A stretch of 64,000 nucleotides of DNA, from NCBI RefSeq assembly GCF_058153355.1, contig NZ_CM177019.1; one strand, written 5' to 3'. Below the pieces are notes generated by a model. That model ran no database searches. It saw only the letters and a list, made by a program, of their open reading frames with translations, and was not told where the DNA came from. This document shows, piece after piece, positions 2,783 through 64,000 of this stretch (the first letter of the stretch is position 1; each line of letters starts with the position of its first letter). Made by a program: the position numbers and the translations under genes.

Positions 2783-2870
2783 AACACATCAGATTTCCTG
2801 GTGTAACGAATTTTTTAAGTGCTTCTTGCTTAAGCAAGTTTAATCCCGACCCCCTCAGGGTCGGGATTTT
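2783..2870 (+). ncRNA. dsrA: DsrA small regulatory RNA (anti-H-NS, rpoS translational activator) with its own terminator hairpin
   Basis: Sequence aacacatcagatttcctggtgtaacgaattttttaagtgcttcttgcttaagcaagttt...cccgaccccctcagggtcgggattttttt matches the recalled DsrA sequence, including the GC hairpin plus U-run; located between yedP and yodD as in K-12. Confidence 0.85.
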
Positions 2871-39771: not shown

Positions 39772-39847
<76 letters not shown>

Positions 39848-39900
39848 GTTTAAAAGACATCGGCTTCAGCGGATGTCCGGCTGAAAGGCCTGAAGAATTT

Positions 39901-39974
39901 GGCGCGTTAACAAAGCGGTTATGTAGCGGATTGCAAATCCGTCTAGTCCGGTTCGACTCCGGAACGCGCCTCCA
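39901..39974 (+). tRNA. cysT: tRNA-Cys (GCA)
   Basis: ggcgcgttaacaaagcggttatgtagcggattGCAaatccgtc...ggttcgactccggaacgcgcctcca; 74 nt. Confidence 0.93.
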
Positions 39975-39986
39975 CTTTCTTCCCGA

Positions 39987-40073
39987 GCCCGGATGGTGGA
40001 ATCGGTAGACACAAGGGATTTAAAATCCCTCGGCGTTCGCGCTGTGCGGGTTCAAGTCCCGCTCCGGGTACCA
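39987..40073 (+). tRNA. leuZ: tRNA-Leu (UAA) with long variable arm
   Basis: gcccggatggtggaatcggtagacacaagggattTAAaatccc...gggttcaagtcccgctccgggtacca; 87 nt. Confidence 0.93.
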
Positions 40074-54855: not shown

Positions 54856-57747
<2,892 letters not shown>

Positions 57748-57767: not shown

Positions 57768-58271
57768 ATGACCGGTATGACGAATGTAACAAAGCTGGCC
57801 AGCGAGCCGTCAGGCCAGGAATTCCTGGTATTTACCCTTGGTGACGAAGAGTACGGTATTGATATTCTGAAAGTGCAGGAGATCCGTGGTTACGATCAGG
57901 TGACACGGATTGCAAACACGCCAGCGTTTATCAAAGGTGTCACTAATCTGCGCGGTGTTATTGTGCCGATTGTCGACTTACGAATTAAGTTCAGTCAGGT
58001 GGATGTGGACTATAACGACAACACAGTAGTTATTGTCCTGAATCTCGGGCAGCGGGTAGTCGGCATCGTAGTGGACGGGGTTTCGGACGTTCTTTCATTG
58101 ACGGCGGAGCAAATTCGTCCGGCACCGGAATTTGCCGTGACTCTTTCAACAGAATATCTCACTGGACTGGGCGCACTGGGTGACCGCATGTTGATTCTGG
58201 TGAACATCGAAAAACTGCTGAACAGCGAAGAGATGGCGCTGTTAGATAGCGCGGCGTCAGAAGTGGCGTAA
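57768..58271 (+). CDS. cheW: Chemotaxis coupling protein CheW
   Basis: 167-aa ORF. Confidence 0.95.
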
Positions 58272-58297
58272 TTCTCCTGATTTCCTCAATTGCAATG

Positions 58298-58329
58298 AAC
58301 CCGATGACCTGCGCATCGGGTTTTTTATT
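58298..58329 (+). terminator. Rho-independent terminator after cheW
   Basis: cccgatg acctgcg catcggg hairpin followed by ttttttattt. Confidence 0.8.
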
Positions 58330-58356
58330 TCAGTTTCGCGGTGGGTGGCATCAGCA

Positions 58357-58384
58357 ATAAAGTTTCCCCCTTCCTTGCCGATAA
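58357..58384 (+). promoter_or_regulatory. sigma28 class 3 promoter for the tar-tap-cheRBYZ operon
   Basis: Exact consensus TAAAGTTT-N11-GCCGATAA about 30 bp upstream of the tar ATG. Confidence 0.9.
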
Positions 58385-58415
58385 CGAGATCAACTTGTTT
58401 TCAGGAAGGTGCCTT

Positions 58416-60077
58416 ATGATTAACCGTATCCGCGTAGTCACGCTGTTGGTAATGGTGCTGGGGGTATTCGCACTGTTACAGCTTATTTCCGGCAGTCTGT
58501 TTTTTTCTTCCCTTCACCATAGCCAGAAGAGCTTTGTGGTTTCCAATCAATTACGGGAACAGCAGGGCGAGCTGACGTCAACCTGGGATTTAATGCTGCA
58601 AACGCGCATTAACCTGAGTCGATCAGCGGTGCGGATGATGATGGATTCCTCCAATCAACAAAGTAACGCCAAAGTTGAATTGCTCGATAGCGCCAGGAAA
58701 ACTTTGGCCCAGGCCGCGACACATTATAAAAAATTCAAAAGCATGGCGCCGTTACCTGAAATGGTCGCTACCAGTCGTAATATTGATGAAAAATATAAAA
58801 ACTATCACACAGCATTAACTGAACTGATTGATTATCTTGATTATGGCAATACTGGAGCTTATTTCGCTCAGCCAACCCAGGGAATGCAAAATGCAATGGG
58901 CGAAGCGTTTGCTCAGTACGCCCTCAGCAGTGAAAAACTGTATCGCGATATCGTCACTGACAACGCAGATGATTACCGATTTGCCCAGTGGCAACTGGCG
59001 GTTATTGCGCTGGTGGTGGTATTAATTCTGCTGGTGGCGTGGTACGGCATTCGCCGTATGTTGCTTACACCGCTGGCAAAAATTATTGCTCACATTCGCG
59101 AAATCGCCGGTGGTAACCTGGCGAATACCCTGACCATTGACGGGCGCAGTGAAATGGGCGACCTGGCGCAGAGCGTTTCACATATGCAACGCTCTTTGAC
59201 TGACACCGTCACTCATGTGCGCGAAGGTTCAGATGCCATCTATGTCGGTACCCGTGAAATTGCGGCGGGCAATACCGATCTTTCCTCTCGTACTGAACAG
59301 CAAGCATCCGCGCTGGAAGAAACTGCTGCCAGCATGGAGCAGCTCACCGCGACGGTGAAGCAAAATGCCGATAACGCCCGCCAGGCCTCGCAACTGGCGC
59401 AAAGTGCCTCCGACACCGCCCAGCATGGCGGCAAAGTAGTGGATGGCGTAGTGAAAACGATGCATGAGATCGCCGATAGTTCGAAGAAAATTGCCGACAT
59501 TATCAGCGTTATCGACGGTATTGCCTTCCAGACTAATATCCTCGCGCTGAATGCCGCTGTTGAAGCCGCGCGAGCGGGTGAACAAGGCCGTGGTTTTGCC
59601 GTGGTGGCGGGCGAAGTGCGTAATCTTGCCAGCCGCAGCGCCCAGGCGGCAAAAGAGATCAAAGCACTTATTGAAGACTCCGTTTCGCGTGTTGATACCG
59701 GTTCAGTGTTGGTCGAAAGCGCCGGGGAAACAATGAACAATATCGTCAATGCTGTCACTCGCGTGACTGACATTATGGGCGAAATTGCATCGGCATCAGA
59801 TGAACAGAGCCGCGGCATCGATCAAGTCGCATTGGCGGTTTCGGAAATGGATCGCGTCACGCAACAGAACGCATCGCTGGTGCAGGAATCAGCTGCCGCC
59901 GCAGCTGCGCTGGAAGAACAGGCCAGTCGTTTAACGCAAGCGGTTTCCGCGTTCCGTCTGGCAGCCAGCCCACTCACCAATAAACCGCAAACACCATCCC
60001 GTCCTGCCAGTGAGCAACCACTGGCACAGCCACGACTGCGAATTGCAGAACAAGATCCAAACTGGGAAACATTTTAA
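58416..60077 (+). CDS. tar: Methyl-accepting chemotaxis protein II Tar (aspartate/maltose receptor, 553 aa)
   Basis: ORF trimmed to [17 protein letters not shown] and MCP signalling domains; C-terminal NWETF pentapeptide. Confidence 0.95.
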
Positions 60078-60122
60078 CGAGCATTGACTAACGCGGTCAT
60101 TGCCGCCTGATGGGGAGCGTTG

Positions 60123-61724
60123 ATGTTTAATCGTATTCGAATTTCGACCACGCTGTTTTTAATTTTGATTCTCTGCGGGATCTTGCAGATTGGCAGTAAC
60201 GGCATGTCTTTTTGGGCATTTCGCGATGATTTGCAACGATTGAATCAGGTCGAGCAGAGCAATCAGCAACGTGCGGCATTAGCGCAAACTCGGGCGGTGA
60301 TGTTACAGGCCAGCACCGCGCTGAATAAAGCGGGCACTCTGACGGCGCTTAGCTATCCGGCAGATGACATTAAAACGTTGATGACGACGGCGCGCGCCAG
60401 TCTGACGCAATCCTCTACGTTATTTAAAAGTTTTATGGCGATGACTGCGGGCAACGAGCACGTGAGGGCGTTGCAAAAAGAGACGGAGAAAAGTTTTGCC
60501 CGCTGGCACAACGATCTCGAACATCAGGCGACCTGGCTTGAAAGTAATCAACTTTCGGATTTCCTCACTGCGCCGGTGCAGGAATCACAGAATGCGTTTG
60601 ACGTTAACTTTGAGGCCTGGCAGCAGGAGATCAACCATGTGCTGGAAGCCGCCAGTGCGCAAAGCCAGCGTAACTATCAGATTTCGGCGCTGGTGTTTAT
60701 CAGCATGATTATTGTTGCAGCGCTCTACATCAGCAGTGCGCTGTGGTGGACGCGCAAGATGATTGTTCAACCACTGGCCATCATCGGTAGCCATTTTGAC
60801 AGCATTGCTGCGGGTAATCTGGCGCGTCCGATTGCGGTATATGGTCGCAATGAGATCACCGCCATTTTTGCCAGCCTGAAGACCATGCAGCAGGCTTTAC
60901 GTGGGACGGTGAGTGATGTGCGTAAGGGAAGCCAGGAGATGCACATTGGTATCGCGGAGATCGTTGCAGGCAATAACGATCTCTCAAGTCGTACCGAACA
61001 GCAGGCGGCATCGCTGGCACAAACGGCCGCCAGTATGGAGCAATTAACCGCCACGGTAGGGCAAAACGCCGATAACGCGCAACAGGCTTCGGAACTGGCA
61101 AAAAAAGCCGCGACAACGGCGCAGGCGGGGGGTGTCCAGGTCAGTACCATGACTCACACCATGCAGGAAATCGCCACCAGCTCGCAAAAAATTGGCGACA
61201 TTATCAGCGTTATCGACGGCATTGCTTTCCAGACCAATATTCTGGCCCTGAATGCGGCAGTGGAAGCGGCTCGCGCCGGAGAGCAGGGGCGTGGTTTTGC
61301 GGTAGTGGCAGGTGAAGTGCGCAATCTTGCCAGCCGTAGCGCCCAGGCGGCAAAAGAGATCAAAGGACTGATCGAAGAGTCTGTCAATCGTGTCCAGCAG
61401 GGTTCGAAACTGGTGAATAACGCCGCCGGGACCATGACCGATATTGTCAGTTCAGTAACCCGCGTGAACGACATTATGGGAGAAATTGCCTCGGCGTCGG
61501 AAGAACAACGGCGTGGGATTGAACAAGTTGCACAGGCTGTTAGCCAGATGGATCAGGTGACACAGCAGAACGCCTCCCTGGTAGAAGAAGCGGCGGCGGC
61601 AACGGAACAACTGGCGAACCAGGCTGACCATCTTTCGTCGCGTGTGGCGGTATTTACCCTTGAAGAACATGAAGTAGCACGACATGAGTCGGCGCAGTTA
61701 CAAATTGCGCCAGTGGTATCCTGA
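60123..61724 (+). CDS. tap: Methyl-accepting chemotaxis protein IV Tap (dipeptide/pyrimidine receptor, 533 aa)
   Basis: ORF trimmed to MFNRIRISTTLFL; signalling domain near-identical to tar; lacks NWETF. Confidence 0.93.
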   Translation: MFNRIRISTTLFLILILCGILQIGSNGMSFWAFRDDLQRLNQVEQSNQQRAALAQTRAVMLQASTALNKAGTLTALSYPADDIKTLMTTARASLTQSSTLFKSFMAMTAGNEHVRALQKETEKSFARWHNDLEHQATWLESNQLSDFLTAPVQESQNAFDVNFEAWQQEINHVLEAASAQSQRNYQISALVFISMIIVAALYISSALWWTRKMIVQPLAIIGSHFDSIAAGNLARPIAVYGRNEITAIFASLKTMQQALRGTVSDVRKGSQEMHIGIAEIVAGNNDLSSRTEQQAASLAQTAASMEQLTATVGQNADNAQQASELAKKAATTAQAGGVQVSTMTHTMQEIATSSQKIGDIISVIDGIAFQTNILALNAAVEAARAGEQGRGFAVVAGEVRNLASRSAQAAKEIKGLIEESVNRVQQGSKLVNNAAGTMTDIVSSVTRVNDIMGEIASASEEQRRGIEQVAQAVSQMDQVTQQNASLVEEAAAATEQLANQADHLSSRVAVFTLEEHEVARHESAQLQIAPVVS

Positions 61725-61742
61725 AGTGATTGAGAAGGCGCT

Positions 61743-62603
61743 ATGACTTCATCTCTGCCCTGTGGGCAAACGTCTTTATTGTTACAGATGACCGAGCGCC
61801 TGGCGCTTTCCGACGCGCATTTTCGGCGGATAAGTCAATTGATCTATCAACGAGCCGGGATCGTTCTGGCTGACCATAAACGCGACATGGTTTACAACCG
61901 ATTAGTTCGTCGCTTGCGTTCGCTGGGACTGACGGATTTCGGCCATTACTTGAACTTGCTGGAATCTAACCAGCACAGCGGTGAGTGGCAGGCGTTTATC
62001 AATTCGCTGACCACGAATCTGACAGCATTTTTCCGTGAGGCACACCATTTTCCTCTGCTCGCGGATCATGCCCGGCGTCGTTCTGGCGAGTATCGTGTAT
62101 GGAGCGCGGCGGCTTCGACCGGCGAAGAACCGTACAGCATTGCGATGACACTGGCTGACACATTGGGCACCGCGCCCGGACGCTGGAAAGTGTTTGCCAG
62201 CGACATTGACACCGAAGTGCTGGAAAAAGCCAGAAGCGGTATTTATCGCCATGAAGAGCTGAAAAATCTGACGCCGCAGCAACTGCAGCGGTACTTCATG
62301 CGAGGGACGGGACCGCATGAAGGGCTGGTACGCGTGCGTCAGGAGCTGGCGAACTATGTTGATTTTGCCCCGCTGAATTTACTGGCGAAACAATACACCG
62401 TGCCGGGGCCGTTTGATGCGATCTTCTGTCGTAACGTCATGATCTACTTCGATCAAACTACCCAGCAGGAGATTTTGCGCCGCTTTGTTCCGCTCCTTAA
62501 ACCCGACGGATTGCTGTTTGCGGGTCACTCTGAAAACTTTAGCCACCTTGAGCGCCGCTTCACGCTGCGTGGTCAGACGGTGTATGCGCTAAGTAAGGAT
62601 TAA
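61743..62603 (+). CDS. cheR: Chemotaxis methyltransferase CheR
   Basis: 286-aa ORF. Confidence 0.95.
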
Positions 62604-62605
62604 CG

Positions 62606-64000
<1,395 letters not shown>

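Follow-up and report, generated by a model that had tools for sequence, protein, structure and literature searches.

Whether the neighboring chemoreceptor genes tar and tap recombine through their shared cytoplasmic region, and with what products, is the question raised by this locus in the window (the whole 64,000-nt stretch of DNA analyzed here). The tar gene (58416–60077, + strand), encoding methyl-accepting chemotaxis protein II (553 aa), and the tap gene (60123–61724, + strand), encoding methyl-accepting chemotaxis protein IV (533 aa), were identified from open reading frames with their translations, Pfam, and NCBIfam equivalogs, and lie on the same strand separated by a 45-nt spacer (60078–60122, +). 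Both products showed the domain order TarH, HAMP, and MCPsignal in Pfam (PF02203, PF00672, PF00015; all above gathering scores), that of the transmembrane MCP class with a Tar-type four-helix-bundle sensor. Both were also full-length equivalogs in NCBIfam, Tar scoring 1194.7 bits against NF011622 (cut-off 900; residues 1–553 of 553) and Tap scoring 1173.9 bits against NF007309 (cut-off 903; residues 1–533 of 533). Tar differs from its K-12 counterpart by 3 aa (tar, 97.3% nucleotide identity), and Tap by 12 aa (tap, 96.6%). The genes, their order, spacing, and domain plan are those of the E. coli K-12 tar-tap locus (b1886-b1885), with no difference in the window; this is the standard intact arrangement, and nothing new about the biology of tar-tap follows from it. 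The two genes are probably old paralogous MCP genes, arranged head-to-tail within the cheA-cheW-tar-tap-cheR-cheB-cheY-cheZ cluster of E. coli.

The C-terminal pentapeptide NWETF is the tether, or docking site, for CheR and CheB in high-abundance receptors. The earlier note on this DNA, made from the sequence alone, had stated that Tar carries it and Tap lacks it, and the window translations agree: Tar ends with ...QDPNWETF (NWETF codons at 60060–60074, +), and Tap with ...LQIAPVVS. The same pentapeptide is used in PMC4692393 and PMC11414734.

Self-comparison of the window produced one ungapped, in-register diagonal between the two genes, ~645 nt long with an offset of 1701 nt and 72.7% nucleotide identity, confirming the proposal that direct repeats lie about 1.7 kb apart. 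Copy A (59247–59890, +) is the adaptation and signalling region of tar (approximately Tar residues 278–492), and copy B (60948–61591, +) is the corresponding region of tap on the same diagonal; the encoded residues are 77% identical. A repeat search returned 300 nt at 77% and 177 nt at 72%. The self-comparison thus gave a real nucleotide diagonal, but the long, nearly identical nucleotide stretches described in the earlier note did not hold up, near-identity being confined to the protein level. The longest exact run is 28 nt (59637–59664, +; tap copy 61338–61365), a run that measures only 16 nt in K-12; identity is 88–92% in the best 50-nt windows and only ~49–55% at third codon positions. A perfect 24-nt block, CGACATTATCAGCGTTATCGACGG, is located at 59495–59518 (+; tap copy 61196–61219). 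Of the strings quoted as common to both genes, TTCCAGAC occurs in the tar and tap copies, whereas GGCGACATTATCAGCGTTATCGACGG matches tap perfectly at 61194 and tar, at 59493, with a single mismatch. In the proteins, identity rises to 97–100% at the signalling hairpin (approximately Tar 360–405) and is 7–40% in the periplasmic sensor halves. Shuffled controls (n = 200) gave a mean longest exact run of 10.5 nt and a maximum of 14 nt, versus the 28 and 24 nt observed, and the match is far above chance. The copies are adjacent and directly oriented, as in a near-identical tandem duplication, but their identity falls well short of the ~95% or more that such a duplication would show across hundreds of bases; at 73% nucleotide identity, the repeat counts as homeologous rather than near-identical.

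Since tar and tap are co-oriented neighbors, gene conversion, concerted evolution, or a recent tandem duplication could have made or could maintain their similarity. In keeping with this, two neighboring tap variants carried by the window and by alleles L003 and L015 (tar-equivalent positions 59642 and 59648) have the base found in tar, which extends the exact run from 16 to 28 nt. Comparison with unlinked paralogs points the other way, however. Across Tar 278–492 in K-12, tar and tap share 73% of nucleotides and 49% of third positions, whereas tar and the unlinked tsr share 77% and 51% (tar-trg, 69% of nucleotides); whether all sites or third positions alone are counted, tar is therefore closer to tsr than to its neighbor tap, and the silent-site closeness of the adjacent pair (0.49) is no greater than that of the unlinked pair (0.51). 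The population alleles surveyed (11 of tar and 9 of tap, with the tap column of L014 ignored owing to a frameshift) also argue against exchange of this kind: tar/tap identity was steady at 72–73% across 9–11 alleles, 149 of the 645 sites were fixed differences, and paralog-like polymorphisms (10/24 in tar, 13/45 in tap) were scattered singletons at a level near that expected from transition bias alone. No gene-conversion tract longer than two sites was found among these 11 tar and 9 tap alleles. Together with the sharply diverged sensor halves, the paralog comparison and the population alleles led us to reject the idea that the similarity stems from gene conversion or a recent duplication, and we consider concerted processes of any of these kinds very improbable. 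The likeness is best read as old paralogy under purifying selection. Such selection would have kept the cytoplasmic methylation helices and the kinase-control hairpin near-constant at the protein level while the sensors diverged, and would thereby leave a 645-nt, ~73% direct repeat at a 1,701-nt offset with identity patches of up to 24–28 nt.

A population screen for fusion alleles, as the earlier note had suggested, was performed as a split-query search with tar 5′ and tap 3′/cheR probes on 5,426 complete E. coli genomes. Exactly three of them (~0.06%) carried the in-register deletion of 1,701 bp that had been predicted; in these, the probe joint measured exactly 1,499 nt (3,200 minus 1,701) and the locus consisted of cheW, a single 1,608-nt MCP gene (535 aa), and then cheR. 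The spacer is lost in this deletion together with the 3′ part of tar and the 5′ part of tap, and every Tar-Tap hybrid ends without NWETF. The idea that the repeats are a recombination substrate giving tar-tap chimeras or deletions was thus borne out, though for a rare event. Fusions were also found in other assemblies: hybrid protein P0002, of the class joined in the 24-nt block, is on record from 71 contigs and 140 index blocks, and hybrid protein P0001, of the ETEC4088 type, from 28 contigs. Diagnostic-site mapping revealed one clean switch from tar to tap in every hybrid, which otherwise differed by 0–2 nt from K-12 tar and tap, and every mapped fusion sits on K-12-like tar/tap alleles. Some hybrid proteins on contigs bear extra substitutions.

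It could be objected that a repeat with only 73% identity is too diverged to recombine, and that the fusion alleles, which are rare and carry the plain name 'Tar' in RefSeq, reflect collapsed assemblies or artefacts of annotation. We find this scarcely credible, as repeats that are 27% diverged are not collapsed by assemblers, and the same neighborhood, cheA-cheW-hybrid-cheR-cheB, surrounds the hybrid alleles in every case, both in closed genomes originating from three countries and in dozens of drafts assembled independently. There are, moreover, four distinct clean junctions with flanks this close to K-12, and the 'Tar' name arises because the hybrids score 1004 and 1049 against the NCBIfam Tar equivalog, above its cut-off of 900. 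Sampling bias may affect these collections, or there may be laboratory-derived strains among the Logan read-set assemblies L021 and L022.

The four junction classes, mapped in the wider collections, are each a single clean switch within an identity patch, of 11, 8, 18, or 24 nt, and all four are located within 59295–59518, in register on the 1,701 diagonal. Recombinants with junctions inside the repeat, as expected of a recombination-active direct repeat, are therefore on record. The commonest crossover, that of ET474 (GCF_041320105.1), PEC389 (GCF_056989455.1), and L018, falls inside the 24-nt block at Tar codons 360–368, the very string quoted in the earlier note. The crossover interval of the type seen in ETEC4088 (GCF_030013145.1), at 59360–59377 (+; Tar codons 315–321), is an 18-nt block in K-12-like alleles, of which merely 11 nt (59367–59377) are exact in the window. 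The crossovers of L021 and L022, two further classes that come from other public assemblies, lie in the region 59295–59332 (+), in an 11-nt patch (59295–59305) and an 8-nt patch (59325–59332), respectively. No natural junction was seen in the 28-nt run among the mapped fusions. Runs of at least 8 nt hold only 29% of the possible crossover slots, giving P ~0.007 for all four classes by chance. Both abundant classes fall in the longest two of the identity runs.

A far commoner change at the same locus is the loss of tap, seen in ~20% of E. coli genomes, Nissle being one example. The common short allele (Nissle, PAR) was examined as a candidate tar-tap recombinant and rejected. Anchored prefix/suffix matching placed its breakpoints at codons 41 and 500, that is, a 1,374/1,375-bp deletion inside tap at an imperfect 8-nt microhomology, with tar intact including NWETF and a 75-codon tap remnant left behind. 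For phylogroup B2/uropathogenic E. coli, the literature has loss of Tap (Lane et al. 2006; Borziak et al. 2013), which PMC12623472 and PMC3559539 summarize. Like the hybrids, it affects this locus and leaves one MCP gene before cheR; unlike them, it is a microhomology deletion internal to tap, not tar/tap recombination.

It is very probable that tar and tap are old, diverged paralogs in which rare in-register exchange at identity patches produces the 1,701-bp deletion and a hybrid gene. An exchange within one patch would delete exactly 1,701 bp and leave a single gene, whose product would combine the Tar sensor, transmembrane segments, HAMP, and first methylation helix with the Tap hairpin, second methylation helix, and NWETF-less C-terminus. 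Such a receptor is predicted to sense aspartate and maltose and to adapt poorly on its own, and Tap-mediated dipeptide taxis would be lost. Several observations sit uneasily with recombination: exact identity of no more than 28 nt and 27% divergence would be expected to hold RecA-mediated exchange strongly in check, the patches at two junctions measure just 8 and 11 nt, and the fusions are rare.

The enzymology may be RecA/RecBCD homeologous exchange, or else RecA-independent template switching or single-strand annealing. The deletions might accordingly have arisen by template switching, replication slippage, or single-strand annealing at short direct repeats, the homeology being irrelevant. 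The two shortest junction patches would fit such events, and the common tap deletion, with its 8-nt microhomology, indicates that microhomology deletions do happen at this locus. The reciprocal product is also missing: no tar-[tap/tar]-tap duplication was found, as every one of the 4,321 chromosomes with tap-specific DNA carried a single copy of it, and none of the four predicted Tap-Tar proteins was found in a collection of 15 billion proteins. The latter is a weak negative from exact-match look-up only, for which same-way forward hybrids built from K-12 sequence (P0002, P0020, and P0023) served as positive controls and were all on record. With only the deletion product on record, classical unequal crossing-over is at most a candidate route. 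Against a route through short repeats, all four junctions keep strictly to the 1,701 diagonal and the abundant classes prefer the longest runs, which suits homology-guided alignment, and out-of-register tar-tap joins exist only as singletons. A Chi sequence, GCTGGTGG, is also located on the − strand at 61174–61181. It lies 14 nt upstream of where the 24-nt block, and hence the commonest junction, stands in tap, and K-12 and four further alleles have conserved it; its orientation suits RecBCD entry from a break between the repeats, and it could thereby have a role in the recombination. On balance, we regard deletion indifferent to homeology as possible but rather unlikely.

The outcome of an exchange would depend on how the receptor genes are arranged. 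The pairs tar-tsr (77% nucleotide identity, exact run of 28 nt) and tap-aer (exact run of 29 nt) resemble tar-tap in sharing the conserved cytoplasmic module, but tar-tsr, tar-trg, and tap-aer are unlinked, so that exchange between them would rearrange the chromosome. Among these, tar-tap is the sole adjacent, co-oriented pair, and exchange therefore yields a viable small deletion.

The hybrids described by Slocum, Halden, and Parkinson in 1987 reportedly had a Tar N-terminal part followed by a Tap C-terminal part, and published Tar-Tap hybrids are said, in one paper, to have arisen by spontaneous deletion. The homology between tar and tap and the existence of Tar-Tap hybrids are already published (Slocum et al. 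1987; Weerasuriya et al. 1998). The titles 'Hybrid E. coli sensory transducers...' (Slocum, Halden, Parkinson 1987, J Bacteriol 169:2938) and 'Chimeric chemoreceptors...' (1998) appear among the works cited in PMC2229510 and PMC12016497. As far as its title tells, the laboratory study of Weerasuriya, Schneider & Manson (1998, J Bacteriol 180:914) concerns hybrids in the 'Tar-Tap' orientation, which is that of the natural hybrids. Compared with laboratory hybrids, the occurrence in wild and veterinary isolates and the four mapped junctions may be additional. The fusion is hereby given a population frequency and a junction map, and can be told apart from the mechanistically different internal tap deletion.

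Natural hybrids might arise recurrently at a few patches and persist in wild E. coli lineages, as part of repeated, possibly adaptive, receptor trimming with a Chi-influenced junction spectrum, a reading that we put forward as doubtful. The hybrids, the B2-type tap deletion, and an E. fergusonii gene encoding Tar with a Tap tail could together represent repeated chemoreceptor trimming, in which the fusion route could also strip Tar of its NWETF tether, and the Chi close to the hottest junction may help to set the junction spectrum. That natural hybrids are annotated as plain Tar is a small addition to a finding that is otherwise ordinary; pipelines that label these NWETF-less proteins 'Tar' would mislead inventories of chemoreceptor repertoires.

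The tar-tap locus of the window is an ordinary intact one, and the finding was therefore counted as already known. Open reading frames for cheA (55729-57747), cheW (57768-58271), tar (58416-60077), tap (60123-61724), cheR (61743-62603) and cheB (62606-63655) follow one another on the plus strand, and the 25 kb upstream show the gene order of the E. coli chromosome (uvrC, araG, otsA to cheA), with identity up to 99.1%. Tar and Tap both contain TarH, HAMP and MCPsignal domains, score above the cut-offs of their NCBIfam equivalogs (Tar 1194.7, cut-off 900; Tap 1173.9, cut-off 903) and differ from their K-12 counterparts at 3 and 12 residues, respectively. Tar ends in QDPNWETF and Tap in QIAPVVS, so Tap indeed lacks the NWETF tether that Tar carries, as the earlier note had stated. 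The best match to 57768-62603 among 5,426 complete E. coli genomes did not exceed 98.5% (K-12, 96.7%), while strain 2013C-4282 matched the N-terminal 700 nt of tap at 99.9% identity, a pattern suggestive of a mosaic allele. A match to the Rfam C0465 RNA (58291-58368, minus strand; 94.5 bits, gathering score 40) lies between cheW and tar, antisense to the leader of tar; Rfam matches in the window also include DsrA (2783-2869, plus strand) and three tRNAs (39772-40070, plus strand). Minus-strand open reading frames of 106-192 aa opposite the signalling domains of tar (59240-59818, 59229-59585) and tap (60767-61150, 61154-61474) are probably shadow frames from Ala/Glu-rich codon content, not genes.

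The earlier note had described the two signalling domains as a near-identical direct repeat about 1.7 kb apart. The repeat is real and non-random: the repeat search returned two in-register direct segments at a spacing of 1701, of 300 nt (77%) and 177 nt (72%), and a single diagonal (59247-59890 versus 60948-61591) has 72.7% nucleotide identity. Identity in 50-nt windows peaks at 0.88-0.92 near 59500-59549 and 59600-59674, and the longest exact runs, 28 nt (59637-59664) and 24 nt (59495-59518), exceed those of shuffled sequences, in which the longest run averaged 10.5 nt and never passed 14. "Near-identical" holds for the protein, with 97-100% amino acid identity over Tar ~360-405 in a codon-aware profile, but not for the DNA, which is 73% identical; over those residues nucleotide identity is 79-88% and third-position identity 37-67%. 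The sensor halves share 7-40% protein identity in the same profile. The 26-mer quoted as common to both genes matches tap exactly at 61194; tar, at 59493, differs from it in one base, and TTCCAGAC downstream of it is present in both. The contrast between amino acid and nucleotide identity suggests that the methylation helices and the hairpin that contacts CheA and CheW are under strong purifying selection.

Homology of tar and tap is classical. All pairs of K-12 tar, tap, tsr, trg and aer were compared over Tar 278-492; nucleotide identity (third positions in parentheses) was 73% (49%) for the adjacent tar and tap, 69% (44%) for tar and trg, and 77% (51%) for tar and tsr, which lie 2.6 Mb apart. 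Since tar is closer to the distant tsr than to its neighbour tap, concerted evolution and a young duplication, for which nothing spoke, were set aside, and old paralogy is the simplest reading of the similarity. An exact run of 29 nt is common to K-12 tap and aer. In a set of 11 tar and 9 tap alleles drawn from various strains, the two genes were 72-73% identical in every genome except E. coli O121 strain 201805972, whose value is corrupted by a tap frameshift; 149 of 645 sites were fixed differences, and paralog-matching variants were scattered singletons.

The earlier note had further proposed that the repeat could recombine into tar-tap chimeras or deletions, and had suggested a population screen. 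The 5,426 genomes were screened with a split query consisting of 400 nt of tar-specific 5′ sequence and 401 nt covering the tap 3′ end and cheR, the halves of which join as a single match only when less than about 900 bp apart. They joined in exactly three genomes, with a span of 1,499 nt (3,200 minus 1,701): ETEC4088 (pig, Belgium), ET474 (frog, China) and PEC389 (pig, Korea), the last two being identical across 6.5 kb. All three have cheW, a single 1,608-nt gene annotated 'tar', and cheR in that order, and the 535-aa product ends in QIAPVVS. These clean hybrids with an in-register 1,701-bp deletion bear out the proposal. In the fusion alleles, the two copies of the cytoplasmic domain have exchanged in register, with removal of 1,701 bp; everything from the sensor to the first methylation helix, including the transmembrane segments and HAMP, comes from Tar, and the hairpin, the second methylation helix and the tail without NWETF come from Tap.

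Mapping showed that diagnostic sites change from tar type to tap type just once along each fusion allele, with flanks differing from K-12 tar and tap at 0-2 nt. The switch falls in an 18-nt identity block in ETEC4088 (window-equivalent 59360-59377, Tar codons 315-321) and in the 24-nt block already quoted in the earlier note in ET474 and PEC389 (59495-59518, codons 360-368). A homology search with the hybrid protein returned further 535-aa hybrids, and mapping of their DNA in Logan read-set assemblies added two junction classes, in patches of 11 nt (59295-59305; L021) and 8 nt (59325-59332; L022). All four classes thus lie within identity runs of at least 8 nt, which make up 29% of possible crossover slots (P ~0.007 under a uniform model), and the two abundant classes occupy the two longest runs of K-12-like alleles; junctions favour the longest patches of perfect identity. 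The reciprocal product was not found: of the 4,321 chromosomes with DNA specific to the tap N-terminus, every one has a single copy. Four predicted 551-aa Tap-Tar proteins had no exact record, a weak negative, while three forward hybrids built from K-12 sequence as positive controls (P0002, P0020, P0023) were all on record.

The enzymology of the exchange we infer from patch length and Chi sites. Shen and Huang in 1986 reportedly put the minimal length for RecBCD-dependent recombination in E. coli at about 23-27 bp; the 24- and 18-nt patches would be at or near this minimum and the 8- and 11-nt patches below it. Because of these short patches, RecA-independent template switching or single-strand annealing is a serious, if less likely, alternative source of the fusions. 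The window holds 20 copies of Chi (GCTGGTGG) against 1.9 expected from shuffles. A minus-strand Chi (61174-61181) precedes the 24-nt block of tap by 14 nt and is kept in K-12 and the four further alleles examined. It is oriented for RecBCD entry from a break between the repeats, which is only suggestive of a contribution to fusion; plus-strand Chi sites lie within the TM2 codons of tar (59009-59016, 59030-59037).

The exact ETEC4088-type hybrid protein (P0001) is recorded from 28 contigs and the exact ET474/PEC389-type hybrid (P0002) from 71, always with cheA-cheW upstream and cheR-cheB downstream. All are named 'methyl-accepting chemotaxis protein II' because their scores for the NCBIfam Tar equivalog NF011622 (1003.6 and 1049.4 bits; genes at 2116-3723 of L004 and L005) exceed the cut-off of 900, and are thus misnamed plain Tar in RefSeq despite a Tap C-terminal half without NWETF. 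Hybrids of the 1987 study by Slocum, Halden and Parkinson reportedly arose as spontaneous deletions, through recombination between homologous regions. Tar-Tap hybrid receptors are already in the literature, that study and one by Weerasuriya, Schneider and Manson (1998) being cited by later papers (PMC2229510, PMC12016497). A small new observation may lie in the naturally occurring hybrids, the map of their junctions and the misnaming. Given these studies and the roles of NWETF and low-abundance receptors (PMC4692393, PMC11414734), a hybrid would be expected to sense aspartate and maltose, to adapt only with the help of a high-abundance partner and to have lost dipeptide taxis.

Loss of tap was surveyed with a cheW-to-cheR query in the same genomes. 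The locus is complete (4,836 bp) in most of them and measures 3,461 bp, without tap, in about one fifth; tap N-terminal DNA was absent from 1,105 of 5,426 (~20%). About 40 genomes lacked both probe halves, one had no match, and a few matches were on plasmids. In the short allele (Nissle, L001; PAR, L002), 1,374/1,375 bp are deleted inside tap, from codon 41 to 500 (window-equivalent about 60246-61620), between ends with imperfect 8-nt microhomology (CAGGTCGA / CAGGCTGA). An in-frame 75-codon remnant is left (L001 3856-4101, L002 3856-4100), with an extra frameshift in PAR. With the deletion internal to tap and tar full-length (1,662 nt, annotated Tar), an origin of the short allele from the tar/tap repeat was rejected; it is the Tap loss known from B2/uropathogenic strains, as described in PMC12623472 and PMC3559539 (citing Lane 2006 and Borziak 2013). 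In O121 strain 201805972, Tap is lost in yet another way, tap being an annotated pseudogene frameshifted by a 1-nt deletion (L014 2356-3956).

Other rearrangements were also encountered. 'Tar' of Escherichia fergusonii (P0073, also P0072; L023 3001-4560; 519 aa) is Tar-like to about residue 513 and ends in TAPVVS, with a spacer of the tap-cheR type following in the DNA. The gene thus resembles the product of a tar-tap deletion in which the Tar linker, NWETF and nearly all of tap were lost. Its upstream genes are fimbrial usher/SCPU, not cheA-cheW. Out-of-register joins (P0017, 771 aa; P0018, 688; P0027, 656; P0028, 680; 1-2 contigs each), such as Tar 1-475 + Tap 238-533 or Tar 1-202 + Tap 57-533, give over-long MCPs in which cytoplasmic segments are duplicated; these joins may be real or assembly errors. 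The MCP P0084 (535 aa, 14 members, 2.4-kb Logan contig), Tar-like over its N-terminal 240 residues (47-75% identity), closer to Tap than Tar beyond about residue 400 and ending in AVPVVS, may be an in-register hybrid of another species. In many E. coli/Shigella Tar variants (P0029-P0043, P0053-P0077), internal segments of HAMP or of the cytoplasmic region are duplicated or deleted in frame, for example 1-221 + 194-553, 1-308 + 292-553, or +25, +11 and -11 aa shifts at residues 367-410.
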